Shown: one piece after another, positions 16,833 through 39,029 of the stretch
Layout: every line of letters begins with the position of its first letter
Numbering within the stretch: the stretch's first letter is position 1
Source of the DNA: an uncultured Dehalococcoidales bacterium
Lineage (GTDB): Bacteria > Chloroflexota > Dehalococcoidia > Dehalococcoidales > E44-bin46
DNA length: 64,000 bases
Direction of reading: 5' to 3'
NCBI GenBank assembly: GCA_964627215.1
Contig: CAZVIZ010000001.1
Coordinates: forward strand, 145,395 to 209,394
Made by a program: the position numbers and the translations under genes
The notes under the pieces: model-generated
The model's input: the letters and a program-made list of their open reading frames with translations, nothing else
The model's database searches: none
What the model was told of the DNA's origin: nothing

Positions 16833-16861
16833 TTATACCTCCTGTATGCGTAAATAAATAC

Positions 16862-17143: not shown

Positions 17144-17169
17144 ATGCCTATGTTTGTCCACTGGTGAGT
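17144..17169 (+). repeat. direct repeat copy 3 of the dnaN 3' end (more diverged)
   Basis: ATGCCTATGTTTGTCCACTGGTGAGT matches 13224-13249 at 22/26 positions and reads MPMFVHW*. All four differences fall on third codon positions. Confidence 0.7.
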
Positions 17170-17852
17170 TGTTTTAAGGGTATCGGTTAAGGCGGGCTGG
17201 TGGAGGCGGGGATCTGATGTGGGTGGCCAGGGAAGGGGCGCATAGGATAATCAAGCCCCATCAGGCTGAGCTTCTGTCTGACGACGTGAAAAAAACCTGC
17301 GTGAGATTGTGGAAACTGCCAGGAAAGAGCTTGTATGAGCTTTGATAGGGCCGATGTTTGGGGAACCTGGTGTCGGCGGCATTCAAGAGTTACTGTGAGT
17401 TGAAGGAAATTCAGCTGATTGTGAGCATAATAGGGTCATCGTGTATGTCAGGGTGATATCCGGCCAGTTGGATAGAATCTTGGTCATGGATGGTGGCCGT
17501 AGTGCATTTGATATAGCGGGACAGATTCTCACCAGCGAGATTCAAGACATGGTGCGCATTAACCACGTGGTCTGGGTGCGGACCAGCGATTCGTTGGAAT
17601 CTGTCATGAACCTTGAGAGCGAGGTATGCATCGGCGCGCAGGACGAATCCCCGGCATCTACAAGGGATACCCTTATACATGTAACAGACTTGATAGAGGA
17701 GTTTGACCTGGAGTATAGGAGGTTGAAGGCGGGGTGGGGGATTATGAAAGTGCGGATTTAGTGGCGTTGCAAGATGTGCCGGGATTATAACTTGGATATC
17801 AATTGTCTCCGGCGTGGCCTGCCAATTTGTAGCCTAAGATTGTGGCCGACTC

Positions 17853-17893
17853 CATGCCCTGATGTAAGTGTAAGCGGATTACATCAGGGCATG
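17853..17893. other. perfect 15-bp inverted repeat (hairpin) downstream of ureD
   Basis: CATGCCCTGATGTAA-11 nt-TTACATCAGGGCATG. There is no clear U-tract on either strand. Confidence 0.3.
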
Positions 17894-17969
17894 ATTTAAC
17901 AAACAAGTCAGGATATATCTCCCGCCGCATTTTGGGTGTCAGGAAACCGGGCGAAGTGAAGGGTTACCC

Positions 17970-18881
17970 TTATCTCATGCCTGCCGGAGTTGCGCCGGTT
18001 TGGATAGGTTTTGCTGGCTTGCCAGCAATTGCCGGTCGCGTTACCTCCCACGCACCATAGATTGCTTCATTGATCTGCCAAGTCTCTTGACTTAAAATAC
18101 GTACAACCACCATATTACCTAAGCGGCTTACCCCTATCTCCACACCATCAACAGCTGCGCACTTATCATGTACTGAATCCTCAATTCCCCCCGGCAGATC
18201 GGGAGCATAAGCGAAGACCGTGCCCATATAGTAGGCTCCATTCCAGAGCTGTTTTAGCGCATCTACGTGCCTGCGTTCCTTTGCAACAAGGCGGTCGATG
18301 GCGAACCTTCTGTTATCAATGCTAACCTCGAACGACGATTCCATACTGTCGAACTGGAAGATTTCACCATCTCCATGGTAGATCCGGCCTGCTGTCATCA
18401 GGTCTGTGGCGAAGAGCCTTGAGGATTGATCTATGAAGATCTGAGTGTTCCGTTGGATACGACTCTGACCATAGGGGATAGCCAGACCAGAATGATACTC
18501 GAATAAGGCTCGCGCACCCACGGTCACATTAACAATCTCGCGTGAGGTTTCCCCCCCCAGGCAACCATAGAACTTACTGGCTGATTGAGCGGCTACCAGC
18601 ATCCTGGTATCGGGTTCAAGAACGGCAGTGAATTCAGTGACATCACCTTCCACGAAACCGCCGCTGGTGGTAATCAGGGGGAAAAACGGCTCATCGTCGT
18701 GATCTTGATAATGGTATCCCTGCCACTGATACGGGACACGCCGACTACGAGACTCAATCTCTGTGCGTCCATTTTGCAACCGCGCGTGTATGTTCAGTAA
18801 ACCGTGTTTACCAATATCCCAATCCTCTTTTGGCAAAACGGGTTCGGCCATAATCAACTCCTCAATCGCCTTAGGGTTCAA
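17970..18881 (-). CDS. ureD: urease accessory protein UreD
   Basis: 303 aa at the last position of the urease cluster, overlapping ureG. Length and position fit UreD/UreH. Confidence 0.7.
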
Positions 18882-19482
18882 TTAAAAGCACTTCGCGTTT
18901 GATCCAGCTAATCACTTGGTCAAGTCCTTCGCCGGTCTTCATATTAGTGAAGATAAATGGCTTATCGCCCCTCATATTCTTGGCGTCTCGTTCCATCAGA
19001 GAGAGATCAGCTCCCACATACTGCGCTAGGTCCCTCTTGTTAATGACTAGGAGAGGGGATTTAGTAATGCCAGGGCCGCCTTTCCTGGGGACGTCATCGC
19101 CTCCTGCTACGTCTAGAACATAGATGTGGCTATCCACAAGCTCTGGGCTATAAGTCGCTGCCAGGTTATCGCCCCCACTCTCAACGAATACTATATCAAC
19201 ATCGGGATGTTGGGCAATCATTTCCTCCACCGCATGAAGATTCATAGACACGTCTTCACGGATTGCGGTGTGAGGGCAACCCCCGGTCTCAACTCCACTA
19301 ACGCGGTCGGCAGGCAGCACACCACTTCTTACAACAGCCTGAGCGTCTTCTTTGGTATAAATATCATTGGTGATAGCTGCCACTGAATAAGTTTTCCCCA
19401 TCTCGCGAGCAAGTTGCAAGAGGAGAGCAGTCTTACCCGAGCCTACGGGTCCTGCAATTCCAAGTCTGACTGGTTTACGCAT
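18871..19482 (-). CDS. ureG: urease accessory GTPase UreG
   Basis: [16 protein letters not shown]...[13 protein letters not shown]...ESGGDNL. Confidence 0.95.
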
Positions 19483-19518
19483 TTTTCCTACTCCTTCCAG
19501 GGTTAATAGTAAATATTC

Positions 19519-20247
19519 TCAAGACATACAGAGGCGAGAATACATACGCTCGTGGTGCATAGCCGCAATATCAAGCATCGCTGCGGTAGATCCAAACTCT
19601 TCAGGCTTGAGTGACCGAGCGATTTCCACTGCTTGGGTCAACAGGGGCCAGGAATTGGTAATGATACGCTGTGCTTCTATTTGACCCAGCGGAATCAGAC
19701 GGGCAGCAACCCCTATTAGATTACCGAGAGTAGCCTGAAGGGAAACTAATACTATTTCCGCTTCTGTGATGCCCGCAGCAGCTCCGGCAACTCCGGAAGC
19801 TACGGCCTGATGACCTTCACATTTGCCTTCCTTCACTGCTTTAGCGTAAGGCTCCAACATTCCACCATGATGAAATACCTTCATCACAGTGGTAAGGAAA
19901 GCATGCCCCATCTTATATGAGGATTCCCGAATCTCCCGTGGGAGCTTTAAAGCTCCCACAAGATTGTCAAGCTCAACGATTTGCTCGAGGTCTCCTGCTA
20001 AAGCTGCACGGTGTGCTGTTGCCACCGCTGCCCCGTCCAGCGGAGCTACTCCATAGAGCAACCAGTTAGAGCATAGTTCCTCTAAGCCCTTCGCATCGGA
20101 GATCTCTCCCCTGTCTATTAGTGTTTCGAATCCATATGAGTGATTGAAAGCACCAGTGGGAAACGCTGAGTTGGCAATTTGAAGTAAATAAAGCAGCCCT
20201 TCCTGCCCTTTTTCAACAGGCATGTGACCTCCTATCCATGCAGACAT
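19519..20247 (-). CDS. ureF: urease accessory protein UreF
   Basis: 242 aa: LLQIANSAFPTGAFNHSYGFE, the typical UreF motif. Confidence 0.85.
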   Translation of the reverse strand: MSAWIGGHMPVEKGQEGLLYLLQIANSAFPTGAFNHSYGFETLIDRGEISDAKGLEELCSNWLLYGVAPLDGAAVATAHRAALAGDLEQIVELDNLVGALKLPREIRESSYKMGHAFLTTVMKVFHHGGMLEPYAKAVKEGKCEGHQAVASGVAGAAAGITEAEIVLVSLQATLGNLIGVAARLIPLGQIEAQRIITNSWPLLTQAVEIARSLKPEEFGSTAAMLDIAAMHHERMYSRLCMS

Positions 20248-20711
20248 TAATCGTGATGATGATGGTGGGCGCCATAACGTTTGCCCGTAAAGGGCGTCAC
20301 ACGTTGGACATAAGGAACTTTGAGCCGGTCCAACACGCCTGCAACCCCTGAATCAGCTGGGGTGAGTAACGAATCGTGGTTGAAACGTACAGGGCTGTGC
20401 AAGTTTCCCAGCAGATAGCCGGTCACCCCCCACTCAAGCGCATCTCTTGGACTAACCACAAAGAGATCCTCTGGTGCAGCGGCGATAACGATGGCGATCT
20501 CCCCATCCACTGCTATCACGTCTCCGTCCATGAGTTCAATGCCTCGTGGAATAGAGAGCCGCATATTGCGCCCGCCTTCGGTTTGTCTGACCATGTGGGG
20601 GCTCGACCGCTCCTCTGCGGTTAGCAGGAGGCGGTCGAACCCCTTCACGTTCTCTTTAAAGTCGTCAGCTTTTCCTAGGACCTCTACAACCACACCCTCT
20701 TCACCAATCAT
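20247..20711 (-). CDS. ureE: urease accessory metallochaperone UreE
   Basis: 154 aa with His-rich tail GAHHHHHD, positioned between ureC and ureF. Confidence 0.8.
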   Translation of the reverse strand: MIGEEGVVVEVLGKADDFKENVKGFDRLLLTAEERSSPHMVRQTEGGRNMRLSIPRGIELMDGDVIAVDGEIAIVIAAAPEDLFVVSPRDALEWGVTGYLLGNLHSPVRFNHDSLLTPADSGVAGVLDRLKVPYVQRVTPFTGKRYGAHHHHHD

Positions 20712-20741
20712 ATCCGACTTCCTTTTTATCTAGGCGTCTTC

Positions 20742-22451
20742 TTAACGGAAGAAATAAAGCTGAGACATAGGCAGCGACTTAGCTGGCTTTACCGTTGCTC
20801 GTTCCCCGTCCACATAAACGCTGTATGACTCTGGGTCGATTTCGATTTCGCCCATCCAGTCATTATACAGCATATCACGTTTGGACAGTGTTCGCACATC
20901 GTGGACCGGCATCAGGGTCTGATGGGACCCAAGCCTGTCGGCCAAGCCGTCATCAATGGCTGCCTGAGGCACGAAGGAATAGCTTAACTGTGACGGATTG
21001 CTACCAAAGGCTGCGTACTGTGGGCGAATCTTGGTCGGCTGGGTGGTCATTAGGGAACCATTGGGTTCTCCCATATCGGCCCTGGAAATGTACCCGCCCT
21101 TTAATATGTGCTGTGGCTTCACGAAGATCATGTCAGGCCGCCAGACAACGAGGTCGGCGAGCTTTCCTGGTTCTATGGAGCCAATATACTGGGAGACACC
21201 AGTGGCGATACAAGGGTTGATGGTAACCTTGGACAAGTATCGCTTGATGCGGAAGTTGTCGTTATTAGGGCTGTCTTCAGGAAGCTTGCCATAACGCACC
21301 TTGTTGACAGCAGCAAGCTGGAAACTCTTCAGCGCGCTCTCACCGGCACGCCCCATGCCCTGGTTGTCCGCCGTCATCATGCTGATAGCACCGATGTCGT
21401 GCAAAACATCCTCAGCCCTCATAGTTTCCGCACGTGCTCGCCCATGGGCGAATGCTATATCTGTCGGCACATCTACGTTGAGATTGTGGCACGTAATCAG
21501 CATGCCGAGAGACTCATCCCAGGTATTGATACAGAACGGATTAGCACAACTGGTCGAGCTGGTCAATAAGTTGGGCTCACCGCAGCACTTCAGGAGGTCT
21601 GGAGCATGTCCCCCTCCGGTACCTTCAACATGATACATATGCATCACTCGTCCGTTGATGGTTTCAAGCGTGCGTTCCATGTATCCGGCTTCATTAAGGG
21701 TGTCAGTGTGCAGCATTATTGGTATATCGTACTCGTCGCCAATCTGCAGACAGACATCGGTTACTGCGTGGGTTGCGCCCCAATCCTCATGAATCTTAAA
21801 GCCCGTTGCACCATTCAGAACCTGTTCTCTTAGTACACCTTTGCTTATGGCATTGCCCTTGCCCCAGTTAGCGAAGTTGACAGGGAAATCGGCCATAGCC
21901 TGCAGCATCATGCGCAAGTTGTTTTGGCCTGGGCACTCAATACCAACGGTGTGAGGGCCCGTGCCGCCGCCGAATAGACTGGTAAAACCAGCGTTCAAGA
22001 ATTCGTATACTGTCTGGACGGAATCGAAGTGGACATGGGCGTCCACTAGTCCTGGAGTGACGATCTTGCCTTCGACTGACAGGATATCAGTGTTGGCTGA
22101 AACAACCAGCCCTGGGGTGATATCCATGGTGTCTGGATTGCCTGCTTTGCCCACGCCAACGAACTTGCCATCCCGAATGCCTATATCGCCTTTAACTATG
22201 CCCTGGACTGGGTCCATGATGACGGCATTGGTTATTACGAAGTCAAGAGCGCCATCGTTATATGACCATTTGCCCGAATGGCCCGCGCCATCACGGATGG
22301 TCTTGCCGGGGCCGAACACCATCTCGTCACCATAAGTACCATAATCGTGTTCAATCTCGGCAACTAGGCCTGTGTCCGCCAAGTGAATGCGATCACCCTT
22401 CGTCGGCCCATACTGTATCGCATAATCAGAACGCGGAATCTTTACGCTCAT
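20742..22451 (-). CDS. ureC: urease alpha subunit
   Basis: 569 aa: VDAHVHF...MLHTDTLNE...HVEGTGGGHAPD...MGRAGE active-site motifs. Confidence 0.95.
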   Translation of the reverse strand: MSVKIPRSDYAIQYGPTKGDRIHLADTGLVAEIEHDYGTYGDEMVFGPGKTIRDGAGHSGKWSYNDGALDFVITNAVIMDPVQGIVKGDIGIRDGKFVGVGKAGNPDTMDITPGLVVSANTDILSVEGKIVTPGLVDAHVHFDSVQTVYEFLNAGFTSLFGGGTGPHTVGIECPGQNNLRMMLQAMADFPVNFANWGKGNAISKGVLREQVLNGATGFKIHEDWGATHAVTDVCLQIGDEYDIPIMLHTDTLNEAGYMERTLETINGRVMHMYHVEGTGGGHAPDLLKCCGEPNLLTSSTSCANPFCINTWDESLGMLITCHNLNVDVPTDIAFAHGRARAETMRAEDVLHDIGAISMMTADNQGMGRAGESALKSFQLAAVNKVRYGKLPEDSPNNDNFRIKRYLSKVTINPCIATGVSQYIGSIEPGKLADLVVWRPDMIFVKPQHILKGGYISRADMGEPNGSLMTTQPTKIRPQYAAFGSNPSQLSYSFVPQAAIDDGLADRLGSHQTLMPVHDVRTLSKRDMLYNDWMGEIEIDPESYSVYVDGERATVKPAKSLPMSQLYFFR

Positions 22452-22501
22452 ATTTGTGCCTCTCTTTCATACTTTAAAAGTTGAAATACCTTCCGGTATA
22501 G

Positions 22502-23005
22502 TTACTTTTTCTTAGCCTTATACTTCTCGTCTGCTCGAGTTACTACCGGGTATCTATCTCCCTCAAAGCAGAAACCGTCGGCACGTAGCCTGCTCATGGT
22601 TTGTTTCTTGATCTCCGGCAACCTTACAGAGCCGTTGGTCATGTTGTTTAGGCCATATATTGCCTGGTGCCCTAGGAAGGTTGTAAGACGGATTTTCTGG
22701 CTTTGTCCGGGCTCAAAACGCACAGAGGTCCCTGCTGGTATGTCGAGACGCAATCCGAAAGCAGCCTCACGATCAAAAGCCATAGCTCTATTGCACTCTG
22801 CAAAATGGAAATGCGCTCCAACCTGGACAGCGCGGTCACCTGTGTTGACCACCGTTAGTTCCGTAGTTGGTCTACCGACGTTAATTTCAATATCGCCTTC
22901 AGCGAAGTCGATATGTCCGCACTTGCTTGGCTCACCAACATCAAATGATTCCTTTGGAATCACAGACTTAGGTAGAGGCGGCCTTTCCCAAAATTTCTCA
23001 GACAT
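22502..23005 (-). CDS. ureB: urease beta subunit (with N- and C-terminal extensions)
   Basis: The core INVGRPTTELTVVNTGDRAVQVGAHFHFAECNRAMAFDR matches UreB. At 167 aa it is longer than the usual ~100-130 aa. Confidence 0.85.
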   Translation of the reverse strand: MSEKFWERPPLPKSVIPKESFDVGEPSKCGHIDFAEGDIEINVGRPTTELTVVNTGDRAVQVGAHFHFAECNRAMAFDREAAFGLRLDIPAGTSVRFEPGQSQKIRLTTFLGHQAIYGLNNMTNGSVRLPEIKKQTMSRLRADGFCFEGDRYPVVTRADEKYKAKKK

Positions 23006-23030
23006 AGCTATCCTCCTTTCGTAATATCTA

Positions 23031-23339
23031 CTATCGTATCGGGTTATATATGGTAACTAACTTCGAGCCTTCGGGGAACTTTACATCGATTTGTAGGATT
23101 TTCATCATCTCCGGCACCGGCTCCATAACGTGATCCTTTGTTAGGATCTTTCCCCCGTATTCCACAAGGTCAACGAGCATCGGAATACTGTTGTCGCGGG
23201 CGCGCTCAAGGACTTCATCACAAATCAGGGCCATGGCTTCGGGGTAGTTCAACTTAACCCCACGCTCAAGCCGCCGCCGAGCCATCTCAGCCGCCGCCCA
23301 AACTTGTATGCGCTCCTCTTCATGGATTGTTAAATGCAT
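23031..23339 (-). CDS. ureA: urease gamma subunit
   Basis: MHLTIHEEERIQVWAAAEMARRRLERGVKLNYPEA. ATG at 23339 is preferred over the track TTG at 23345. Confidence 0.9.
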   Translation of the reverse strand: MHLTIHEEERIQVWAAAEMARRRLERGVKLNYPEAMALICDEVLERARDNSIPMLVDLVEYGGKILTKDHVMEPVPEMMKILQIDVKFPEGSKLVTIYNPIR

Positions 23340-23438
23340 CCCCAACCCCCTTTCTCTTTCTATTAAGAATAAAATCTCTCAACTTCTTTATTGCGCCTAC
23401 CTTCACATAACCCCCCTCCCTTTCTATTGATTATCACT

Positions 23439-23456
23439 GCGCAATATCATTTGCGC
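23439..23456. promoter_or_regulatory. palindrome GCGCAA-N6-TTGCGC upstream of ureA (operator candidate)
   Basis: Perfect 6-6-6 inverted repeat about 100 bp upstream of the ureA start, in the SBP1-ureA spacer. Confidence 0.3.
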
Positions 23457-23500
23457 TTCAAGTAGCTCACAGGGTTTATCCTATTAGTGCCTACTTATGG

Positions 23501-24931
23501 CTACTCTAGCCAAGGAGGCAATACAAACTCCGTTCCTACCTCTTCAATATATTGATGTCGGGGTTGATACCCGTAGTGTTCTAACATATATTCTTCTGTG
23601 GGGTAGTCATATAAGAAGAGTACTATATCCTGCGGGCCGTCTGATGTGACCTGTATCTGGCTGAAGGTCATTGAGGACCCGTAATCTGGTCCCTCCGGAC
23701 GGTTTTCCTTGTCCCACTCCGGCATACCCTCTCTCCACATTGTACGGTCAGTACCGCTCAGCGGCGATATGTTAGTCCCGCTCGGGCCATAAGTCATGCC
23801 TTTCATGTGAGTGTCCATGATGTGATCAATAATTCCGCGATAATCCTTCACATCACCGACAGCTTCAACAGCTTCCGCCCAGAACATAACCTGATCATAG
23901 TTTGAATAAGCCATGCAGAAGCCAGGCCCCTCGCCAAATCTGGCCGTATATCTTTCCCTGTAATCGTACGCCTTGTCGGTTGGATACGGCCCTATGGTGG
24001 TTTGCCAAAGCAAGCCCACAGCTTGTTCCCCCAGCATTTTCCGCAATTCAGGTGTAGTCGGAGCATACTGGATAACAATCAGCGAATCGGTCGGGTCTTC
24101 AAGGAATTGCCTTACGAAAGCGGCTGATTCGGGAACAAACGCGGTGTTGAAAAAGATGAACCCTGGGTTTGCCTCCCTGATCTTGGCTAGCTGTATCCCA
24201 AATTCCGGAACACCACTGCCGACGTCCATGCTCCTGAATGGGTGAACTTCATCTATCACTAATTCCCACTCGGGGTCCGCTTCTATCAAATCTCTTAGAA
24301 CGCCCGAAATCTCCAAGTTGTAGGTTACCTGTGCCGTTAAGATTGCTGCCGTTTTGCTTGGATAATCATATTCCTCCGCAATCTTCTCAGTCATAATCTC
24401 ATAAACATTTGGGCCATACATTACTGCGGTGTCGTCCAGCTGCAATATGTTCCAGTACTTATCTGGGTTCGACGCCCACATTTCAGCAAACAGTTCTGTA
24501 GTACCCACATGAAGATAGGGAATGCCGCCGGTCTCCTCCGCGGCGAAAATATCCATGAAGGCGGGATCGAAGCCATAACCCGGGAAGAAGGCATCTACCT
24601 CCTTTTGTAGCAGGTAGTCACGAGCCGCGATCTGGTCCTGCGCCCCCCAGTTCACCACATCACGGATAAAGATTTCTACGCGTCTCCCCAGTAACCCACC
24701 CCTAGCGTTTATCTCTTCAACCGCCATGGTCATTCCGCGTTCCATCTCTATCGCATCAGGCCCTGGCACCCCGCTGAGAGGCAAGGGCGCGCCTATTCTT
24801 ATCGGTTCTATCTCCTCTGGTGTTGGAGTTGGGGCAGCACAGCCATTTAGCAATGGCACACTTGTTAGCAGTACCGCTGCTAAGCTTATACCGACAATCG
24901 CTTTAAACTTTAACAATTTAGATTTACCCAT
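23501..24931 (-). CDS. ABC transporter substrate-binding lipoprotein, Liv/Urt (HAAT) type, paralog 1
   Basis: Lipobox LLNGC. It is very similar to the 28515-29993 product (shared blocks such as DPAFMDIFAAEETGGIPYLH and ELFAEMWASNPDKYWNILQ). The internal ATG at 24931 avoids overlap with the ATPase gene. Confidence 0.75.
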   Translation of the reverse strand: MGKSKLLKFKAIVGISLAAVLLTSVPLLNGCAAPTPTPEEIEPIRIGAPLPLSGVPGPDAIEMERGMTMAVEEINARGGLLGRRVEIFIRDVVNWGAQDQIAARDYLLQKEVDAFFPGYGFDPAFMDIFAAEETGGIPYLHVGTTELFAEMWASNPDKYWNILQLDDTAVMYGPNVYEIMTEKIAEEYDYPSKTAAILTAQVTYNLEISGVLRDLIEADPEWELVIDEVHPFRSMDVGSGVPEFGIQLAKIREANPGFIFFNTAFVPESAAFVRQFLEDPTDSLIVIQYAPTTPELRKMLGEQAVGLLWQTTIGPYPTDKAYDYRERYTARFGEGPGFCMAYSNYDQVMFWAEAVEAVGDVKDYRGIIDHIMDTHMKGMTYGPSGTNISPLSGTDRTMWREGMPEWDKENRPEGPDYGSSMTFSQIQVTSDGPQDIVLFLYDYPTEEYMLEHYGYQPRHQYIEEVGTEFVLPPWLE

Positions 24932-24932
24932 T

Positions 24933-25637
24933 TTATATCCCCAAGAACACGGCTTTGACATGCTCATTTTGCATGACCTCTTCCGTGGTCCCATGGAATA
25001 CTATCCGGCCGTCTTCTACCAAGTAGACCTTGTCTGTATATTCTGAGGCTTCGGTAATATCTTGCTCCACCATAAGCACGGTAATCCCGGTCTTATTGAT
25101 AGTGGCGATTGTCTTAAACACCTCTTCTCTAAGAAAGGGAGCTAAACCCAGTGATGGTTCGTCTATCGCCAGCAGTTTGGCGTTGGACATCAAACCTCGC
25201 CCGAGAGCCAGCATACGAGCCTCTCCACCGCTTAACTGCTCAGCCAGATGCGAAATCCGCTCTTTCAATCTTGGGAACATTTCGAGGACGTATTCGATAT
25301 TCTCAGCCATCTTAGCTCTAGCATGTACGTTATAGGCGCCCAATTCCAGATTATCCATGACGCTCATTTTCGGGAAAAGATGCCTGTCCTCGGCGATATA
25401 CACTAAACCCATCTCGACTAGCTTGAGAGCCCCCAGGTTAGTAATATCTTTTCCGTCAAAATTTATTGAGCCTGAGGTCGATGGATGTAGGCCGCAGATA
25501 GTCTTAAGCAGGGTGCTTTTACCATGACCATTCGGCCCGAAAACAACCACCAACTCACCCTCGGCTACCTCAAGAGAAATATCGTGTAATGCCCGGAATT
25601 GTCCGTAGTAACTATTCAGGTCTTTTACTTTAAGCAT
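24933..25637 (-). CDS. ABC transporter ATP-binding protein (LivF/UrtE-like)
   Basis: Walker A GPNGHGKST, signature LSGGE, Walker B LLAIDEP. Confidence 0.9.
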   Translation of the reverse strand: MLKVKDLNSYYGQFRALHDISLEVAEGELVVVFGPNGHGKSTLLKTICGLHPSTSGSINFDGKDITNLGALKLVEMGLVYIAEDRHLFPKMSVMDNLELGAYNVHARAKMAENIEYVLEMFPRLKERISHLAEQLSGGEARMLALGRGLMSNAKLLAIDEPSLGLAPFLREEVFKTIATINKTGITVLMVEQDITEASEYTDKVYLVEDGRIVFHGTTEEVMQNEHVKAVFLGI

Positions 25638-26352
25638 GTTTGCCCCTCCCTAGATAAACTTCTATGACCTTCTCCATGCTGCAAACCTCATCCGGAGGAC
25701 CAATAGCAATCTTGACACCGTTTTCTAGAATCATGAGTCTATTAGCCAGCCGCGTGAGCACCTTCATCAGGTGCTCAATTATTATGATGGTCATACCCAG
25801 TTCAGTATTTACCTTTTCAACTAGAGAAACAAACTGTCCAACCTCTGTCGGGCTTAGCCCACCTATGGGTTCATCTAACAGCAGTAACTTTGGTTTTGTG
25901 GCCAGAGCCGCTGCTAACATGGTCAGCTTTTTATCGTAGAGATTGAGGTTGTCAGCGATAACCTCCTCTTTCCCTTCTAACCCCACAAACTTGATCGCCT
26001 CCCTAATATTCTCATACTTTTCTTCTTTTCCCACGTTGCCGAAATGTGCGCCAACCTCTACATTAGCGTGCACCGGCAGGGTAGAGAAAAGCTGAGGGAT
26101 TTGAAGAGTTCCTGCAACACCCCTGTGACAGACTTGATGCGTTTTAAGCTTCATAATGTGTTCATTATCAAAGATAATGTCCCCTGAGCCCTTGTAGACT
26201 CTGGAGATTACATTAAACAAAGTGGTTTTTCCCGCACCATTTGGCCCGGCAACGCCAAGCACCTCCCCTTTTTCTAACTCAAAGTCGAGGTCGCTAATCA
26301 CTTTTAATGAACCAAATTGCTGGGTTACTTTCTCACATTTAAGAAGGGACAT
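25630..26352 (-). CDS. ABC transporter ATP-binding protein (LivG/UrtD-like)
   Basis: GPNGAGKTT...LLLLDEP...IIEH. Confidence 0.9.
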   Translation of the reverse strand: MSLLKCEKVTQQFGSLKVISDLDFELEKGEVLGVAGPNGAGKTTLFNVISRVYKGSGDIIFDNEHIMKLKTHQVCHRGVAGTLQIPQLFSTLPVHANVEVGAHFGNVGKEEKYENIREAIKFVGLEGKEEVIADNLNLYDKKLTMLAAALATKPKLLLLDEPIGGLSPTEVGQFVSLVEKVNTELGMTIIIIEHLMKVLTRLANRLMILENGVKIAIGPPDEVCSMEKVIEVYLGRGKHA

Positions 26353-26411
26353 ATTTATTCCTCTTGTTGGGCAAATATAGTTTTATACTCATATATCGTC
26401 CATTCCATACG

Positions 26412-27416
26412 TCATGCCGTAGGCGAGTCACTCACCTTTTTAGATGTCCTGCCCGTGATGAAACGCTTGGCGACTTCGGGTATTGAAATTAGGCCACCAG
26501 GTAAAGCAATCATTACTGCTACTACTATTGCTCCCAGTATTGTAAGACGTGCCATACCTACCTCCCGCGCAGCATCGTTAAGGAATATGACTACGAACGC
26601 GCCAATCGCTGCTCCGGGGAACCGTGACATACCTCCAAGCATAACCATGACTAGAGCGAAAAGGAAAAACTCAAGTCTAAAGATGCCAGGAGAAATCACG
26701 CCCATGTAATGAACGTAGAAACTGCCTGCCACGCCTGTGATGAAAGCAGCCAGTGCGAACACTATAACCGTGTATTTATACTGGTCTATTCCGAGCTTCT
26801 TTGCGAAGGTTTCAGCATCACGGAGGGCCATGAATGCCAGCCCGATTGGGGAATTGATAATCTTATGTATCGCAAAAATGAATCCAGCGAATAGACCTAA
26901 AGCCGCATAATACCAAGGGATCATATTAAGCTTAGAGAAAACATAGTCTCCAACATTCAGGGGCGCTATGCCAAACAAACCGTAAGTTCCCCCAGTCCCA
27001 ATCGCGTTTCCAGCGACAAATAAGGTTGGCAGGACTAGATGAATGGCGAAGGTGACCATACCTACATAGATTCCTCTAAGTCTAAGGCAGATTACAGCCA
27101 CTACAAGACCGGTGGCTAGTGCTATGCCACCCCCTGCCAGCATTCCCAGCCATGGTGATATTCCCATATGTAAGGTAAGCATGGCCGAAGCGTAACCACC
27201 CAGGGCGAAAAACGCGAGCTGTCCGAAAGACAAGACCCTGGCATATCCCATAATCAGGTCCCATGCGCTAGCTACCACGCCCCAAATGAAGCTCAAGATA
27301 AACAAATGCATTATGTCGCGGTTGCCTCCGATGCCAAGCGGAAGAAGGCATAAAAGTGCTGCTAAACCGATGAAAATATAGGATTTCTTGTTTAATCTCA
27401 ATGCTCTTTTTACCAT
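26412..27416 (-). CDS. ABC transporter permease (LivM/UrtC-like)
   Basis: Polytopic membrane protein. ATG at 27416 overlaps the livH-like stop (ATGGTAA). Confidence 0.85.
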   Translation of the reverse strand: MVKRALRLNKKSYIFIGLAALLCLLPLGIGGNRDIMHLFILSFIWGVVASAWDLIMGYARVLSFGQLAFFALGGYASAMLTLHMGISPWLGMLAGGGIALATGLVVAVICLRLRGIYVGMVTFAIHLVLPTLFVAGNAIGTGGTYGLFGIAPLNVGDYVFSKLNMIPWYYAALGLFAGFIFAIHKIINSPIGLAFMALRDAETFAKKLGIDQYKYTVIVFALAAFITGVAGSFYVHYMGVISPGIFRLEFFLFALVMVMLGGMSRFPGAAIGAFVVIFLNDAAREVGMARLTILGAIVVAVMIALPGGLISIPEVAKRFITGRTSKKVSDSPTA

Positions 27417-28282
27417 GTTCCAAACAGTCCTCTCGGCCTCAGCGCTAATACTACGAACAATATCACCAAGAAGATAGGCAGCGCCCATAGAGCGCCGATT
27501 TGATATGTAACAAACGCCTCTACTATCGCCAAGGTGAAGGCAGCGACGATGGTCCCTTTAATACTGCCTAAGCCGCCAAATACTACAACTACCATTGCCT
27601 TGACAAGAACAGGCCAACCTACATAGGAATATAGCTGGGTTCTTGGAGCGAGAAGCATACCGCTGATACCAGCCAGGGCTGTTGTTAAAGCAAATGTATA
27701 GCCAAATACCTTAGGTGATGGTATCCCGACAATGGCTGCCCCTATCGAATCTTGGGCAACCCCTTGCATAGCCTTCCCGGCTCTGGTTTTCTTCAAGAAC
27801 ATGTTAAGTGCGATCATTGCAGCTATCGCTATAAGCAATATTGCTAGATCATGTTTAGCAAATGAAAACTGACCAAATGTCAAGTTACCCTCAATTAGGT
27901 AGGGCAAGGTTCTGCCTCGCGCGCCAAAGATTACCAGAGATAAGTTATCTAAGAACAAGGCAGAGCCTAAAGTAACGATTATGGCAAGCCATTCCCAGTC
28001 AGGGAAGCGACGCAACGGATTTAGAAGCGCCCTTTCATATGCTAGGCCCATAAAGAACATAATTACGATTGTAATGCCAAAAACCAACGGATAAGGTAGG
28101 TTAAAGTATCCTTTGTGCAAGCTCCAGGCGATGTATCCACCCCAGAGATAGAACGACCCCAGAGCAAAATTGAAGACCCTGGTAATACCGTAAACTAGAG
28201 TTAACCCTAAAGCCATTAAGGCATATATACCACCAAGCGAGATGGCAACTAAAAGTACATCTATGACTTCAGAACCAGACAT
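27410..28282 (-). CDS. ABC transporter permease (LivH/UrtB-like)
   Basis: 290 aa, polytopic: LTLVYGITRVFNFALG. Confidence 0.85.
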   Translation of the reverse strand: MSGSEVIDVLLVAISLGGIYALMALGLTLVYGITRVFNFALGSFYLWGGYIAWSLHKGYFNLPYPLVFGITIVIMFFMGLAYERALLNPLRRFPDWEWLAIIVTLGSALFLDNLSLVIFGARGRTLPYLIEGNLTFGQFSFAKHDLAILLIAIAAMIALNMFLKKTRAGKAMQGVAQDSIGAAIVGIPSPKVFGYTFALTTALAGISGMLLAPRTQLYSYVGWPVLVKAMVVVVFGGLGSIKGTIVAAFTLAIVEAFVTYQIGALWALPIFLVILFVVLALRPRGLFGTW

Positions 28283-28514
28283 AGCTTGTCACCTTTCCCC
28301 TCCGCTTGGGACATGCGCTTCTCTTCTTGTCTGCGTATCCCTTGAAATTTTGCCCCACTGTGGTTCTCTCCCCTATGGGCCGGGCATAAGTGCTTAGTCG
28401 CCGCTTCTTTCTTCCTCTATCCCTTGGTGCCAGGGATAACACGGCAGTACAAACCGTAAGCATAACTAAGCACCTATGCTGCCCTATAAATTTAAGGTTT
28501 CAACCTTGCGAAAC

Positions 28515-29993
28515 TTACTCCAGCCACGGAGGTAGCACGAATTCCGCCCCTACCTCGTCAAGATACTTGTGGAAGGGGTCGACCCCATAGTAAGCCTGCA
28601 TATACTCTTCTGTTGGCATGTCGTAGATGTAGGTTATGACATCTTGAGGACCATCGGAAGTCGCCTTTATCTGACTGAACGTCATGCTGGTTCCGACGTC
28701 CTTGCCTTCTGGCCTGTTTTCTTTATCCCACTCTGTCATACCGTTTCTCCATACTGTCCGATCGGTACCACTCAGAGGAGATACGTTAAGGCCAGCAGGA
28801 CCCTGTGTCATGCCTGCCATGATTACGCGGTCTTCAGTGCCGATAGAAGTGCGCATGAACTGATCGATAATGCCTTCGTAATCCTCTACATCACCGACAG
28901 CTTCGACAGCTTGAGCCCAGAACATGACTGCATCATGCACTGCGTAGGCTTGACAGAAGCCAGGTTCCTCGCCAAAGGTGTCTATATACCTCTCCCTATA
29001 ATCAAATACGGTCTTAGTTGGGGGAGGCCCTTCACTAGTTTGCCAAAGTATGCCGATAGACTGGTCGCCAAGCATCTTCCGGAACTCGACGTTGGATGGA
29101 CAGTAATGGACAACAACTAGTGAATCGGACGGGTTGCTCAGGAACTGTCTTACGAATGCTACCCCTTCAGGAACCACAACGGTGCTGAAGAAGATGAACC
29201 CTGGGTTGTGCTCTCTGATCTTGGATAGCTGAACCCCAAACTCCTGGGTGCCGAACGGGTGCTCTTCGTCTACTACCACTTCCCACTCGGGATCCGCGTT
29301 TATCAGATCCCTTAACCCGGCCGAAATCTCCTGATTATAGGTTATCTGTGATGTCAGGATTGCCACAGTTTTGTTGGGATACTCGTATTCGTTTGGAATT
29401 GCCCTGGTCATGACCTCGTAGACATTCGGGCTATACGTGATGGAGGTGTCGTCAATCTGCAGTATGTTCCAGTACTTGTCCGGATTCGACGCCCACATCT
29501 CCGCAAACAGCTCTGTGGTGCCGTAATGGAGATAGGGAATACCACCGGTCTCCTCTGCGGCGAAAATGTCCATGAAGGCGGGATCTAGTCCGTAACCCGG
29601 CAGGAACAGGTCTACATCCTTTGTAAGCAGGTAGTCGCGAGCCGCAACCTGATCCACCGCTCCCCAATCTACTACGTCAGCGGTGACGTATTCCACAGGC
29701 CTTCCCAGCAAGCCGCCCCTGGCATTGAGGTCCTCAACGCCCAGGCTAAGTCCGCGTTCTATCTCTACGGCATCAGATGCTGGTGCCCCAGTGATAGGCA
29801 AAGGTGCTCCGATTACTATCGGCTCTGGCGGTGCTTCGGTCGGCGGTGCCGTTTCGGTCGGCGGTGCCTCTTCGGTCGGCGGTGCTGCTTCCTGTTTTCC
29901 AGGCAAACAACCGCTAGTAAGAGGTACAATTATCGCCAGCGCTACTATTAGGCTGATGATAAACGCTTGTTTTAGTGCTAGTCTTCTCTTCAT
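28515..29993 (-). CDS. ABC transporter substrate-binding lipoprotein, Liv/Urt (HAAT) type, paralog 2
   Basis: Lipobox LTSGC followed by a Pro/Glu/Thr/Ala-rich linker. Paralog of 23501-24931. Confidence 0.75.
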   Translation of the reverse strand: MKRRLALKQAFIISLIVALAIIVPLTSGCLPGKQEAAPPTEEAPPTETAPPTEAPPEPIVIGAPLPITGAPASDAVEIERGLSLGVEDLNARGGLLGRPVEYVTADVVDWGAVDQVAARDYLLTKDVDLFLPGYGLDPAFMDIFAAEETGGIPYLHYGTTELFAEMWASNPDKYWNILQIDDTSITYSPNVYEVMTRAIPNEYEYPNKTVAILTSQITYNQEISAGLRDLINADPEWEVVVDEEHPFGTQEFGVQLSKIREHNPGFIFFSTVVVPEGVAFVRQFLSNPSDSLVVVHYCPSNVEFRKMLGDQSIGILWQTSEGPPPTKTVFDYRERYIDTFGEEPGFCQAYAVHDAVMFWAQAVEAVGDVEDYEGIIDQFMRTSIGTEDRVIMAGMTQGPAGLNVSPLSGTDRTVWRNGMTEWDKENRPEGKDVGTSMTFSQIKATSDGPQDVITYIYDMPTEEYMQAYYGVDPFHKYLDEVGAEFVLPPWLE

Positions 29994-30175
29994 CTAAACC
30001 CTCTAAAACCCCCTCTCAACTTCCTAATTTTATAACACACATCAATTATTACTCACTTTATATATGTTTTGTTCACTCCATATAGTGTCTCCTTTCTATT
30101 TTCTTTCTATTACGCAAAATTCCGGAATTCATTGCCTCGAATTCTCGGCTAAAAAGTCTATTCATTCTGTTTACC

Positions 30176-35937: not shown

Positions 35938-36795
35938 TCACACGGCGGCTTCTATATTTTGCCACAGGTTTGATATGAGCCCGCCGATGCCGTTACGGGA
36001 GTATTCCACCACAGGCTGGCGCTTGACGAGCGCTTCTGTAACCACGGTATCAAAAGGTATTTCGGCGGCCACCTCTATGCCGTTTTTACGGCAGTATTCC
36101 TTTAGGGCAGCACTGTTTTCATGGTTCAGGTCGCACTTATTTATGCAGACCATCATCGGTACCTTAAAGTGATGGCAGACCTGGGCAACGCGCTCCAGGT
36201 CGTGGATGCCCGAAAGGGTGGGCTCGGTGACGATGACCGCTAGGTGCGCTCCTGATAGAGACGATATGACCGGGCAGCCGATGCCCGGAGGGCCGTCTGC
36301 TATGAGGTACTGCAAACCTTTCTCCTCGGCGACTTGGCGTGCCTTCTGCTTCACCAGGGCCACCAGCTTGCCGGAGTTCTCCTGCGCTACCCCCAGCTTG
36401 GCGTGAACCAGGGGTCCATAGCGCGTCTGGGAGAGATACCAATGCCCTGCCATGTTGTCGTGCATGGTTATGGCCTGGTTGGGGCAGATATTGTAGCAGA
36501 AACAGCACCCTTCGCAAGCAAGCGGGTTCACACGGTAGTCCTCCGTGACGGCGTCGAAGCGGCACACCTCCCGGCACAGCCCGCAGCGGGAGCATGTCTC
36601 CTGGTCTATCTCCGCGTTCTGCCCGGCGACGAACTCACTCTGCTGCTGGGAGGAGGGATTGAGGATAAGGTGCAGGTCAGCGGCATCTACGTCGCAGTCT
36701 GCCATTACCTTGTTCTGGGCCAGGGAAGCCAGCGAGGCGGTGATGATGGTCTTGCCCGTTCCGCCCTTGCCGCTTATGACTACTATCTCCTTCAT
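35938..36795 (-). CDS. MinD/ParA-superfamily P-loop ATPase with inserted 4Fe-4S ferredoxin domain (COG1149-like)
   Basis: MKEIVVISGKGGTGKT P-loop, plus CSRCGLCREVCRF and CEGCCFCYNICP clusters. ATG at 36795 overlaps the upstream stop (ATGA). Confidence 0.8.
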   Translation of the reverse strand: MKEIVVISGKGGTGKTIITASLASLAQNKVMADCDVDAADLHLILNPSSQQQSEFVAGQNAEIDQETCSRCGLCREVCRFDAVTEDYRVNPLACEGCCFCYNICPNQAITMHDNMAGHWYLSQTRYGPLVHAKLGVAQENSGKLVALVKQKARQVAEEKGLQYLIADGPPGIGCPVISSLSGAHLAVIVTEPTLSGIHDLERVAQVCHHFKVPMMVCINKCDLNHENSAALKEYCRKNGIEVAAEIPFDTVVTEALVKRQPVVEYSRNGIGGLISNLWQNIEAAV

Positions 36796-37766
36796 TTGCC
36801 GCCTTTCTCGTCTAAGCTGTCCCGGATTTTCCGCCAAAGCTCGTGGAATTCATCTTTCCACTGAGGCATTCCCTCCACCAGGGGTACGCCGCGGGAATAA
36901 AACCTGGCGATTTCGCTATCCAGGGGTATCCTGAGCAGTACGTCTATCCCCTTACCGCGGCAATAGTCCTCAACTCCCATGTCCCCCACTCCGTCGCGGT
37001 TTATGACCACGCCGTGGGGTATACCGAGCTTGATAAGCATTTCCACAGCTAGTGCGAGGTCGTTCAGGCCGAATGGTGTGGGCTCGGTTACCAGCAGGCA
37101 GAAGTCGGTGTCCTTTACGGCCTCAACCACGGGGCAGGATGTGCCCGGAGAGGCGTCTATGATATTTACCCCCTGGGGGGAGGCATGGTTCTTGGTCTCC
37201 TTGATGATGTGGGGGGCGGCCACCTCACCGATGGTGAGCCGGCCCTGTACCAGGGCTAATCCGTCCCGGTTTGCGAACTCCAGCACCCCTACCTCTCTCC
37301 CCACCTCTGATATAGCCTTGGGGGGGCATAGGTATGAGCACGCTCCGCAACCGTGGCAAAGTTCCGGGAAGACGAGAACCCTGTCTCTCACCACAGCGAT
37401 GGCGTTGTAGGCGCATGCCTCGGCGCAGTCGCCGCAGTGGTTGCAGAGGCTCTCGTCTATTTGGGGGGTGGGGAGCAAAACGGGCCTGGTTTCCTTTATG
37501 GGCAACTTTAGGAGCACATTAGCATTAGGCTCCTCCACGTCGCAGTCAAGCACTGTTCCCGTCTCAGCGTCCTCTATGGATAGAGCCAAACTGGTGGCCA
37601 CCAGCGTCTTGCCTGTGCCGCCTTTGCCGCTGGCTATGGATATCGTCAGGCCCGTTCTCTTCCCATCCTGATGCCGCACCAGGCAGGGATGCCTCCCATT
37701 CTTCCCCTGCCCCTGCCGATATTGCCAGCGGGGCTTCTTTGCCCGAACATGGTTTTTACCCCCCAT
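36792..37766 (-). CDS. MinD/ParA-superfamily P-loop ATPase with inserted 4Fe-4S ferredoxin domain, paralog
   Basis: ISIASGKGGTGKT, CNHCGDCAEACAYNA and CHGCGACSYLCP. The exact start is uncertain: ATG 37766 overlaps the upstream stop, and the alternative is an internal GTG. Confidence 0.75.
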   Translation of the reverse strand: MGGKNHVRAKKPRWQYRQGQGKNGRHPCLVRHQDGKRTGLTISIASGKGGTGKTLVATSLALSIEDAETGTVLDCDVEEPNANVLLKLPIKETRPVLLPTPQIDESLCNHCGDCAEACAYNAIAVVRDRVLVFPELCHGCGACSYLCPPKAISEVGREVGVLEFANRDGLALVQGRLTIGEVAAPHIIKETKNHASPQGVNIIDASPGTSCPVVEAVKDTDFCLLVTEPTPFGLNDLALAVEMLIKLGIPHGVVINRDGVGDMGVEDYCRGKGIDVLLRIPLDSEIARFYSRGVPLVEGMPQWKDEFHELWRKIRDSLDEKGGK

Positions 37767-38310
37767 CTCTTCCCAGCTCGTCTATGCGCTGCTGGATACG
37801 CTCCATATGGCTTTTAAGCTCCTCTAGCTGTGCCTTTAGCATTTCAGCCTCCTGGGACGAGCTTATGGGTTTGCACTGCCCGTGCCTGCCCCCACCTCCG
37901 CCCTGTCCTCCGCCGCAGCCATTGCCCATTCCCATGCCAGCCCCAGCGCAGGCGCCAAAATGGCTGGCAACATTGGGCTGGGGGCTGGGCGTATGGAGGC
38001 CGGCTTTATGGCTCTTGGCAGCATCCTCAACCCTGCCGCCGACCCCGGTGAATATCTCTACGCCTGCGACGGACAGTACTTCGTGGGCATTGGGGCCGCA
38101 GTTTCCGGTCAGCACTGCCTTCACCCCCTTGTTGGCTATCATCTGTGCCGTGGAGATGCCGGCACCGCCTGCGGTCATGGCGGTGGTGTTGTCTATGGTC
38201 TCAAACTCCATTGTGTCCGGGTCTACGATGACAAAATATGGGCATCTGCCGAAGCGGTGGTCTACGTCGGCTTCCAGGCTTGGCGCCGTGGCTGAAATGG
38301 CTATCCTCAT
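37756..38310 (-). CDS. NifX/NifB-C-terminal-like (dinitrogenase FeMo-cofactor biosynthesis domain) protein with Gly-rich linker and DUF5320-like coiled coil
   Basis: MRIAISA...HFGRCPYFVIVD...GAGISTAQMIANKGVKAVLTGNCGPNA, then GMGMGNGCGGGQGGGGG, then EAEMLKAQLEELKSHMERIQQRIDEL. Confidence 0.7.
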   Translation of the reverse strand: MRIAISATAPSLEADVDHRFGRCPYFVIVDPDTMEFETIDNTTAMTAGGAGISTAQMIANKGVKAVLTGNCGPNAHEVLSVAGVEIFTGVGGRVEDAAKSHKAGLHTPSPQPNVASHFGACAGAGMGMGNGCGGGQGGGGGRHGQCKPISSSQEAEMLKAQLEELKSHMERIQQRIDELGRDGG

Positions 38311-38345
38311 TACTCTTTCCTCCTAGCGATTATTATATATGGTCC

Positions 38346-38816
38346 TTATTCGGGCCTGGTTGTCCTGCGTGTGTCCATGTGCGTCCCCTCTTCCCCTCCT
38401 GGTTGCGGCTGGATTGGTATGATATTGGGCGTCTTACACACGGGGCACTTCCTCGGGGGGGTGGTTACCATTACCTCAAAGGGGACCTCCCAGTCATGGC
38501 CGTTTATACAGCGGAAGGGGCGCTTCTGCATCTCAAAGTTGCCACCTTCAATCCTGATGGCCTTACCATTGAGCAAAGCGTCGGCCAGCTTGCCCCTGGC
38601 GCCGGTGAGCACGCGGTGGAAGGTGGGGCGGGAGATGTTCATGCGCCTGGCGCATGCCTCTTGCTCCAAACCCTCCAGGTCCTTGAGCCTTATTGCCTCT
38701 GCCTCCTCTACGGATATACATACCTCCTTGAGGACGCGCATTGGTATCCCCGCCGGCTTGAAGAAGGTTACCTCTGGTATGGAGGCCACACAACGCCGCT
38801 TAGGTATCCGACCCAT
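38346..38816 (-). CDS. DUF134 (UPF0251) putative DNA-binding protein with C-terminal Zn-ribbon-like tail
   Basis: PKRRCVASIPEVTFFKPAGIP...EAIRLKDLEGLEQEACARRMNISRPTFHRVL, with C-terminal C..H...CPVC. Confidence 0.75.
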   Translation of the reverse strand: MGRIPKRRCVASIPEVTFFKPAGIPMRVLKEVCISVEEAEAIRLKDLEGLEQEACARRMNISRPTFHRVLTGARGKLADALLNGKAIRIEGGNFEMQKRPFRCINGHDWEVPFEVMVTTPPRKCPVCKTPNIIPIQPQPGGEEGTHMDTRRTTRPE

Positions 38817-38846
38817 CTTCCTGTATAAACCCCTCTCGGTATTTTT

Positions 38847-38882
38847 ACATAGGTTCGCAAAAATACTATAATGAACCTATGT
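38847..38882. promoter_or_regulatory. 10-16-10 perfect palindrome ACATAGGTTC...GAACCTATGT upstream of the DUF134 operon (operator candidate)
   Basis: Read directly. It lies 31-66 bp upstream of the DUF134 start, and the spacer contains TATAAT (plus strand) / TATAGT (minus strand). Confidence 0.45.
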
Positions 38883-39029
38883 CCAGAATAATGATACCAT
38901 CGGCTGCGGCCTGAGTCAAGGCTTGATTAGCGTTCCTTGAACATATGACGGGTTGTTTTTGGATTTGCCTTAAAATAGGCCTTGCGAAAGGTGATTCTGA
39001 TGGTAGAATGTTAGTAGGGCCTTTAAGCT

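Follow-up and report, generated by a model that had tools for sequence, protein, structure and literature searches.

The 64-kb stretch of DNA analysed here (the window), from an uncultured Dehalococcoidales bacterium, carries four open reading frames (ORFs), g1 to g4, that encode a DUF134/UPF0251 protein, a NifX-like carrier protein fused to a DUF5320 coiled coil and two paralogous P-loop ATPases with iron-sulfur (Fe-S) motifs, A (g3) and B (g4) (Table 1). We assign g2 to g4 as orthologues of the carrier protein and of the Orp3/Orp4-type pair of paralogous Fe-S ATPases in the orange protein (ORP) system of Desulfovibrio; the window set is a cut-down ORP gene cluster, of a kind already described, here accompanied by a DUF134 gene and a sigma-70-type promoter. 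The original prediction, made from the letters of the stretch, had placed four same-strand genes with these domains, and two 4Fe-4S motifs in each ATPase, at this position, and both the ORF list and Pfam agree with it. The g1 product matched the Pfam DUF134 model (PF02001) with 85.6 bits, against a gathering cut-off of 27, over profile positions 6-97 of 98, with weaker matches to sigma-70 region 4, and the g2 product matched Nitro_FeMo-Co (4.6e-23) followed by DUF5320 (1.1e-06). None of the four products attains any curated NCBIfam cut-off, the nearest models being those of archaeal MinD and MrpORP. The closest homologues of the cluster proteins are labelled Dehalococcoidales or Dehalococcoidia, and an identical copy of the four-gene cluster is present in a second public assembly.

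Table 1. Coordinates of the cluster genes and of the candidate control elements around g1
Feature	Position	Strand	Basis or remark
Four ORFs, g1-g4	35938-38816	minus	ORF list; they fill the stretch exactly
g1, DUF134/UPF0251 protein, 156 amino acids	38346..38816	minus	Pfam DUF134 3.7e-24; proposed autorepressor
g2, NifX/ORP/IssA-type domain, Gly-rich linker and DUF5320 coiled coil, 184 amino acids	37756..38310	minus	Pfam
g3, ATPase A, 295 amino acids from GTG 37679	36792..37679	minus	Pfam ParA/CbiA P-loop, two Fer4 motifs
g4, ATPase B, 285 amino acids	35938..36795	minus	Pfam ParA/CbiA P-loop, two Fer4 motifs; architecture as g3
Ribosome-binding site of g2, AGGAGG	38319..38324	minus	Sequence reading; within the 35-nt g1-g2 spacer
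Sigma-70-type promoter, TTGACT-17 nt-extended -10 TGgTATCAT	38891..38919	minus	Consensus scan, 10/12, TG before the -10 box
Operator-like palindrome, site 1, TTCTGGACATAGGTTCATTA	38869..38888	minus	16.9 bits on the palindrome matrix
Degenerate site 2, TTGCGAACCTATGTAAAAAT	38841..38860	minus	<12 bits; 28 nt downstream of site 1

Translation of g3 more likely begins at GTG 37679 than at ATG 37766, since homologous ATPases begin right at the motif xI(L/I)SIASGKGG, the public gene call uses the same GTG and GGGAGG sits 11 nt upstream of it. The g2-g3 spacer then measures 76 nt, and of the two overlaps noted in the original prediction the ATGA at 36795-36792, where the g3 stop overlaps the g4 start, stands, while the 11-nt overlap of g2 and g3 was probably an artefact of the longest ORF, read from ATG 37766. 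We place the g1 start at ATG 38816 and take the public 131-amino-acid call to be too short, because the match to the Pfam profile already begins at residue 3; since the public call starts later, looking up the exact 156-amino-acid sequence among public proteins returned no match. The g4 product is the called public protein P0001. One sigma-70-like promoter lies upstream of g1, and a consensus scan found no internal minus-strand terminator within the cluster, in keeping with the operon-like coupling proposed earlier. A 34-codon Gly/Arg-rich ORF in an alternative frame (37646-37750, minus strand; MFGQRSPAGNIGRGRGRMGG...) fills the g2-g3 spacer, where relatives encode a Gly-rich zinc-ribbon protein. 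Its profile match is confined to Gly/Arg sequence of low complexity (E about 0.04-0.07, three-sequence search), and we did not accept the ORF as a remnant of the zinc-ribbon gene.

Orthology with the Desulfovibrio ORP genes

The locus used for comparison was the ORP locus of Desulfovibrio sp. X2 (L005), in which sigma-54 activators, two Gly-rich proteins, ORP, ATPases of 302 and 315 amino acids and a second NifX-like gene follow one another in this order. By BLASTP, g3 was 42% identical to the 302-amino-acid A-type ATPase of that locus and 31% to the 315-amino-acid B-type, whereas g4 was 49% identical to the B-type and 32% to the A-type. The matches are paralogue-specific, and the A/B duplication is therefore older than the split of these phyla. 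The g2 product was 41% identical (E 8e-21) to the X2 ORP, whose gene lies directly upstream of the ATPase pair, and its residues 2-92 matched the orange protein of Desulfovibrio gigas (PDB 2wfb, 1.9e-17). The order carrier-A-B is common to the window and Desulfovibrio sp. X2; it is ancient and widespread.

In D. vulgaris, the ORP complex consists of Orp3, Orp4, Orp5, Orp8 and Orp9; Orp3 and Orp4 carry two [4Fe-4S] motifs each, and Orp3, Orp4 and Orp8 purify together as a complex that contains Fe-S, and MrpORP passes clusters on to them (PMC6345978). Transcription of the orp genes, via the sigma-54 activator OrpR, is confined to low redox potential (PMC8359166), and the same paper cites an earlier proposal of an archaeal origin. 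Two statements of the original prediction fall with this assignment: that nothing had been demonstrated for the gene set, given that the Desulfovibrio orthologues co-purify with Fe-S and are expressed in a redox-dependent manner (PMC6345978, PMC8359166), and that the system might be undescribed, given that g2 to g4 match their ORP counterparts at 41-49% identity, paralogue by paralogue and in the same order. Assigning the window to the ORP system thus removes a false claim of novelty. The proviso that a characterised orthologous system might already explain the genes holds in part, in that the system is named and partly characterised, but its authors in 2021 still termed its role unclear (PMC8359166).

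Species-representative genomes scanned with a B-type alignment gave at least 600 stretches, at least 555 of them confirmed, and 80 loci were examined; their ORFs were called and classified by profiles from the cluster proteins, a screening limited to nine cluster families. The 80 loci come from many bacterial lineages and from Archaea, among them Chloroflexota, Acidobacteriota, Clostridia, Omnitrophota, Atribacteria, Planctomycetia, Ignavibacteria, Elusimicrobia, Desulfobacterales, Zixibacteria, Methanocellaceae, Methanophagales and others, with a recurrent order of [DUF134] - DUF5320 - one or two NifX (often DUF5320-fused) - Gly/Arg-rich zinc-ribbon protein - A - B - [NifX] - [Mrp or Mrp~NifX] - [NifU_N]. 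ATPase A lies directly upstream of B in 60 of the 72 testable loci, most commonly with a 4-nt overlap. All 38 loci with full flanks contain NifX, and DUF5320 (27/38), Mrp (21/38), NifU (18/38), the zinc-ribbon protein (18/38) and DUF134 (12/38) accompany it in declining number; the NifX~DUF5320 fusion seen in g2 recurs in 27 ORFs across the surveyed loci. The co-occurrence check suggested with the original prediction thus has a clear outcome: the gene set recurs far beyond chance, both in these loci and in an independent DUF134 set (below), and the frequent Mrp and NifU_N neighbours fit the likeness to metallocluster machinery that the prediction had seen. In a full-library search the ATPase was represented by 721 clusters (50% identity) with E<=1e-30, and it occurs in at least hundreds of species-representative genomes. 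The top matches of the representative search are natural single-chain A-B fusions of 590-700 amino acids, with an A-type N-terminal half and a B-type C-terminal half (P0361, P0362, P0364 and about 30 more), and A and B therefore act together as a pair. As to a physical complex, the fusions speak for the association of A with B only.

Against this background the window copy is reduced. Within the 64 kb, tblastn with the Mrp, second NifX and NifU proteins of relatives, together with a profile scan, gave no free-standing gene for DUF5320, the zinc-ribbon protein, a second NifX, Mrp or NifU. Apart from the cluster genes, nothing in the window resembled NifX/NifB or MinD/NifH/Mrp in scans with iterated NifX and P-loop profiles, which agrees with the earlier statement that no nitrogenase genes are nearby. 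The window DUF134 is also without the Gly/Trp/Arg tail found in most relatives.

Both ATPases look catalytically competent, with switch II apparently wired to a cysteine. Invariant in the two paralogues across the surveyed lineages are a deviant Walker A motif, SGKGGTGKT, that includes the signature lysine, the DxD of switch I, a pair of CxxCxxCxxxC(P) motifs that follow switch I as an insertion and a D-x2-P-G-x2-C-P switch II with a Cys 7 residues after the Walker B aspartate; g3 carries DCDVEEPN, and g4 carries DCDVDAADL and DGPPGIGCP. The signature lysine reaches across the dimer in MinD-, ParA- and NifH-class proteins, and in NifH, too, a Cys lies 7 residues after the switch II aspartate (D125...C132). 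No CxxC occurs in A or B outside the ferredoxin inserts.

Several features of the relatives' loci deserve separate mention. The zinc-ribbon family (70-80 amino acids) recurs just upstream of ATPase A (L002 6900-7130, L007 8878 and many others), with a Gly/Arg-rich N-terminus followed by CVCPxCG...HQRGxPC...CPxCG, and has no Pfam model; in the archaeal locus L075 the zinc-ribbon module is fused to DUF134. Beside the cluster of the Dehalococcoidales locus L002 lies an Mrp homologue (9293-10312) with an N-terminal FeS_assembly_P domain and a single cysteine, without the cluster-bridging CxxC of characterised Mrp/NBP35 proteins, and just upstream of it a NifX-like gene with HFGHCE...CDH motifs. 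The Armatimonadota locus L029 (2068-6140) holds two successive A-B pairs with a NifX~DUF5320 gene between them.

DUF134 and an operator-like palindrome

The g1 product comprises a basic N-terminal arm, a sigma-region-4-like helix-turn-helix (HTH) at about residues 36-83 and a C-terminal metal ribbon, C103-x3-H107...C124-P-x-C127. Its AlphaFold2 (AF2) model is confident only for residues 30-90 and the ribbon, and in that model three helices superpose on sigma region 4 and on the DeoR DNA-binding domain with a root-mean-square deviation of 0.5-1.0 A. The C-x3-H...C-P-x-C pattern is invariant at the DUF134 C-terminus; other phyla have a CxxC...CxxC ribbon, and in one archaeal locus the ribbon is replaced by the zinc-ribbon protein module.

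Comparison of the regions upstream of DUF134 brought out a 20-bp palindrome with the consensus TTATGAGCATATGCTCATAA. A matrix for it found 44 matches of at least 12 bits in 31 loci, against 0 in a shuffle, almost all of them just upstream of the first cluster gene, which is DUF134 if present and otherwise NifX or ATPase A (Desulfobacterales, Clostridia). The matrix was built from those same loci, and 80 DUF134-centred metagenome loci formed the independent test set, in which the palindrome was present in 65 of 70 loci with enough upstream DNA, DUF5320/NifX followed in 44 of 47 and A/B in 19 of 22. Site 1 of the window is a degenerate copy of TTATGGACATATGTCCATAA / TTATGAGCATATGCTCATAA, which occupy the same position in relatives, and begins 2 nt past the -10 box, so that it covers the expected transcription start. 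This spacing is shared: the palindrome of nine relatives, like that of the window, begins 2-3 nt past the -10 box, and the layout TTGACA-17-TATCAT/TATAAT lies upstream of DUF134 in L002, L003, L007, L078, L087, L088, L090, L091 and L094 as well. The cores of sites 1 and 2 form a perfect 10-nt inverted repeat (38847-38856 / 38873-38882); the 28-nt tandem layout is also found in L002 and L007, and by eye a second site can be seen in L087 and L088.

Regulator and operator also co-vary. Across 87 regulator-operator pairs, in counts uncorrected for shared ancestry, the recognition-helix residue that follows the invariant RPTF is H wherever the half-site cores are GGAC, GAAC or TGAC (43 of 43 loci), and Q or G wherever they are GAGC (27 of 27); the window fits, with H67 and GGAC/GAAC cores. 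Because the palindrome follows the -10 box and its core co-varies with the recognition helix, DUF134 would most simply be an autorepressor of these operons, a stand-in for the sigma-54/OrpR arrangement of Desulfovibrio. The link between DUF134 and the palindrome appears to be new: a literature search, with subscription literature and regulon databases outside its scope, found no study of DUF134/UPF0251, COG1149, COG1433, COG1342, DUF5320 or the palindrome. Compared by eye with the consensus of Fur/PerR-type boxes, the palindrome has similar outer arms (TTATGA/TCATAA) but a different spacing (6-8-6), and we set such an identity aside. A search of the g1 leader against Rfam gave no match to a known RNA family. 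On the opposite strand, a promoter-like site (38844-38872, plus strand; TTTACA-17-TATAAT, 11/12) overlaps both palindromes and faces the response-regulator gene at 39030, and a protein at the palindromes could affect both divergent genes.

Proposed function and rival readings

We propose, at a probability of roughly 55%, that the four-gene operon is a reduced, anaerobe-specific ORP system together with its own regulator and a role in Fe-S or metal-sulfide handling. A DUF134 dimer, in the place of the Desulfovibrio activator OrpR, would sit on the palindrome through its sigma-region-4-like HTH and repress its own operon at the transcription start, with the Cys/His ribbon as the likely place where metal, Fe-S or redox state is sensed. 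The A/B pair would form an ATP-sandwich heterodimer, in which nucleotide-driven movement of switch II would be linked, by way of the inserted ferredoxin domains, to electron transfer or to loading and unloading. The pair would act on an inorganic species, Fe-S or heterometal sulfide, that the NifX-like protein binds non-covalently; the DUF5320 coiled coil would oligomerise this carrier. In fuller loci the product might be exchanged with co-encoded Mrp and NifU-type Fe-S carriers; for the window copy, these missing partners may be encoded elsewhere in the genome.

A number of points weigh against this proposal. To our knowledge, the A and B ATPases have no known biochemical activity in any organism, and we infer the handling of Fe-S or metal sulfide as their function. 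The orthologous system has a single reported phenotype, a cell-shape or morphological defect on loss of orp expression (Fievet 2011, as cited in PMC8359166), and in the published transfer assay Orp3 and Orp4 were recipients of clusters, not donors (PMC6345978). The window locus is without Mrp, second NifX and NifU within its 64 kb and the g2 linker is not cationic; the copy may have a different working mode or be in decay. Its operator is degenerate as well (16.9 bits, against 25-34 in relatives). Binding of DNA by DUF134 is a prediction, the co-variation counts are uncorrected for phylogeny, and the palindrome heads Desulfobacterales clusters with no DUF134 within 10 kb (L030, L044, L081, L083), where the regulator could be encoded elsewhere or another factor could act on the palindrome. 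Finally, we infer co-transcription of g1 to g4 from their spacing and from consensus scans.

The Desulfovibrio authors have hypothesised that the ATPases are positioners of the MinD/ParA type, serving the redox-responsive placement of the septum or of polar cargo with their Fe-S inserts as sensors, a reading that we consider unlikely. The reported cell-shape defect and the polar localisation of MrpORP (PMC8359166, PMC6345978) speak for it, as does the AF2 model of g4 (mean predicted local distance difference test score, pLDDT, 84.6), whose best fold matches are MinD, FleN and FlhG, and the retained signature lysine of dimerising MinD/ParA ATPases. However, NifH follows these folds with a nearly equal score, and the final helix of g4 is packed into the fold (pLDDT 93-94), with no membrane-targeting tail beyond it. 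No MinC or MinE gene was noted among the called genes of four annotated relatives or in the window flanks (no systematic search was made, and the 80 loci were not searched for min genes). A NifX-like carrier, moreover, always accompanies the ATPase pair, and Mrp and NifU_N often do, which speaks for cluster chemistry. We favour Fe-S or heterometal-sulfide handling over cytoskeletal positioning because of this constant NifX/ORP/IssA-type partner, the frequent presence of Mrp and NifU_N and the published Fe-S content of the Desulfovibrio proteins.

The nature of the carrier bears on two further alternatives. The g2 product consists of a NifX-type domain (residues 1-102), a Gly-rich linker (103-147) and the DUF5320 coiled coil (148-184), and its best PDB match is MTH1175 (8e-22). 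MTH1175 has been placed in the clade of IssA, a protein that stores Fe-S as thioferrate and rebuilds ferredoxin clusters (PMC5524996), and g2 could accordingly be pictured as an IssA-like store that deposits iron and sulfur as a thioferrate-type polymer, which the ATPases would mobilise reductively. In Methanococcus voltae grown on pyrite, two IssA homologues whose locus tags lie close together, Mvol_0689 and Mvol_0693, show raised expression (PMC8516115), and tails rich in Gly and Arg are found repeatedly on the NifX, DUF5320, zinc-ribbon and DUF134 proteins of the surveyed loci, the cationic Gly-rich tail in L003 reaching an isoelectric point (pI) of 12. In contrast, the 45-residue linker of g2 contains 16 Gly, 2 Arg/Lys and 1 aromatic residue and is followed by an acidic coiled coil (whole-protein pI 5.8), so that the presumed thioferrate-binding feature is missing; the three Cys of the linker are absent from the L002 homologue. 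Particle data are known from Pyrococcus only and the part given to the ATPases is conjecture, and we regard such a store as quite unlikely.

Quite unlikely as well, in our estimation, is a system that handles molybdenum or tungsten (Mo/W) thiometallates, with copper, for storage, for detoxification or to feed molybdopterin enzymes. The orange protein holds a non-covalent S2MoS2CuS2MoS2 cluster, according to earlier work cited in PMC6345978, and both the identity of g2 to the Desulfovibrio ORP and the presence of MobB next to the cluster in L002, L003, L007, L080 and L089 are consistent with such a role. Yet MobB occurs in just 2 of the 38 complete loci, in which Mrp and NifU_N are far commoner, no Mo/W transporter or molybdopterin gene adjoins the window cluster, and the closest structure to g2 belongs to the IssA clade (PMC5524996). 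That the window copy is a decaying remnant without current function strikes us as most improbable, for although it is without the DUF5320, zinc-ribbon, second NifX, Mrp and NifU genes kept by most Dehalococcoidia relatives, and has a degenerate operator and a DUF134 shorn of its tail, its four ORFs are intact, g1, g3 and g4 keep every residue invariant across the surveyed lineages, the promoter matches the consensus at 10 of 12 positions and the second public assembly carries the identical copy.

Beyond the reduced ORP system proposed here, one can entertain the doubtful but far-reaching idea that DUF134, as a metal- or Fe-S-sensing autorepressor, and its palindrome form an ancient regulon widespread in anaerobes, and that A/B is an ATP-driven, NifH-like reductase acting on a depot of inorganic Fe-S, either thioferrate-like or a heterometal sulfide, which it would mobilise or load and which NifX/IssA-type carriers and Gly/Arg-rich partners would hold. 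If true, anaerobes would have a third route of Fe-S supply beside SUF and ISC/NIF. The ORP-type cluster is among the most widespread anaerobe-specific gene sets of unknown function, and what the present analysis adds is the link between DUF134 and the palindrome, the natural A-B fusions, which fix the partnership of the two ATPases, and the composition of the cluster across lineages, including two recurrent Gly/Arg-rich partner families (DUF5320 and the unnamed zinc-ribbon protein) not highlighted in the Desulfovibrio work. DUF134, as a candidate dedicated regulator with a defined operator, offers a handle for finding the inducing signal. The metabolism of Dehalococcoidia rests on Fe-S and corrinoid enzymes, and the operon is a plausible part of their cofactor supply.

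Genomic setting and comparison with known systems

In the window, pstC-pstA-pstB-phoU lie on one flank of the cluster, converging on g4, and on the other flank a divergent OmpR-type response regulator with a HAMP-PAS histidine kinase. We rejected these flanks as functional context: relatives carry the cluster in other surroundings and do not share them, and the phosphate genes probably have nothing to do with it. No gene for an enhancer-binding protein (EBP) flanks the window cluster. Further away, at 14000-30000, the window holds a urease operon with accessory genes (ureC 20742-22451, ureF 19519-20247, ureG 18871-19482, ureD 17970-18881), accompanied by genes of a branched-chain/urea-type ABC transporter (23501-29993). 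The G+C content of the urease stretch is 0.46-0.51, against 0.55-0.61 elsewhere in the window, and it may have been acquired horizontally. The sole Rfam match in the window, 5_ureB_sRNA (22000-22298, plus strand; 43.5 bits, cut-off 40), is antisense inside the urease alpha-subunit gene and may merely reflect conserved coding sequence.

The known system closest to the window set is that of Desulfovibrio, with which it shares a neighbouring pair of paralogous P-loop ATPases that bear two 4Fe-4S motifs apiece, an ORP-type NifX-like protein and a confinement to anaerobes. Unlike the Desulfovibrio locus, the window is without MrpORP (Mrp/NBP35 and Di-Nase domains) and the second NifX-like protein (Orp5), and its ORP domain continues into a Gly-rich linker and a DUF5320 coiled coil. 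Control differs too, with sigma-54, OrpR and IHF in Desulfovibrio and a sigma-70-type promoter, a palindromic operator and a DUF134 gene in the window; the OrpR site, GGGCGYRTTTTGCGCCC, is unrelated to the palindrome, and the Desulfovibrio sp. X2 locus contains no palindrome match of 12 bits or more.

Among cofactor-handling proteins, the ATPases belong to the same superclass as NifH, with the signature lysine and a Cys at the NifH spacing. The NifH-type Fe protein has a [4Fe-4S] cluster that bridges its subunits through Cys97 and Cys132 of each (Azotobacter vinelandii numbering), whereas A and B have no visible conserved equivalent of Cys97, carry their clusters in inserted ferredoxin domains and are proposed to form a heterodimer of paralogues, with no nif genes in the window; the nifH model scores 20.9 bits against a cut-off of 394. 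With Mrp/NBP35/ApbC proteins, whose genes are frequent neighbours of A and B, they share the P-loop fold, the deviant Walker A motif and the involvement of Fe-S, but they differ in having ferredoxin inserts and no C-terminal CxxC, and their scores on the MrpORP model (43-50 bits) are far below its cut-off of 450. MinD, FleN and FlhG are the best fold matches and the archaeal MinD model is the top NCBIfam match, yet minD_arch reaches only 48-66 bits against a cut-off of 202, and a ferredoxin insert and the want of a membrane-targeting tail set A and B apart from that family. The carrier resembles the NifX/NafY cofactor carriers in its NifX fold, a fold for a non-covalently held cluster, and resembles Pyrococcus furiosus IssA in joining an IPR003731/NifX-type domain, probably of the MTH1175 clade, to a Gly-rich extension; in g2, unlike in IssA, that extension lacks cationic and aromatic character and runs into a coiled coil, and IssA has not been described together with an ATPase pair such as the one that follows g2 in the window.

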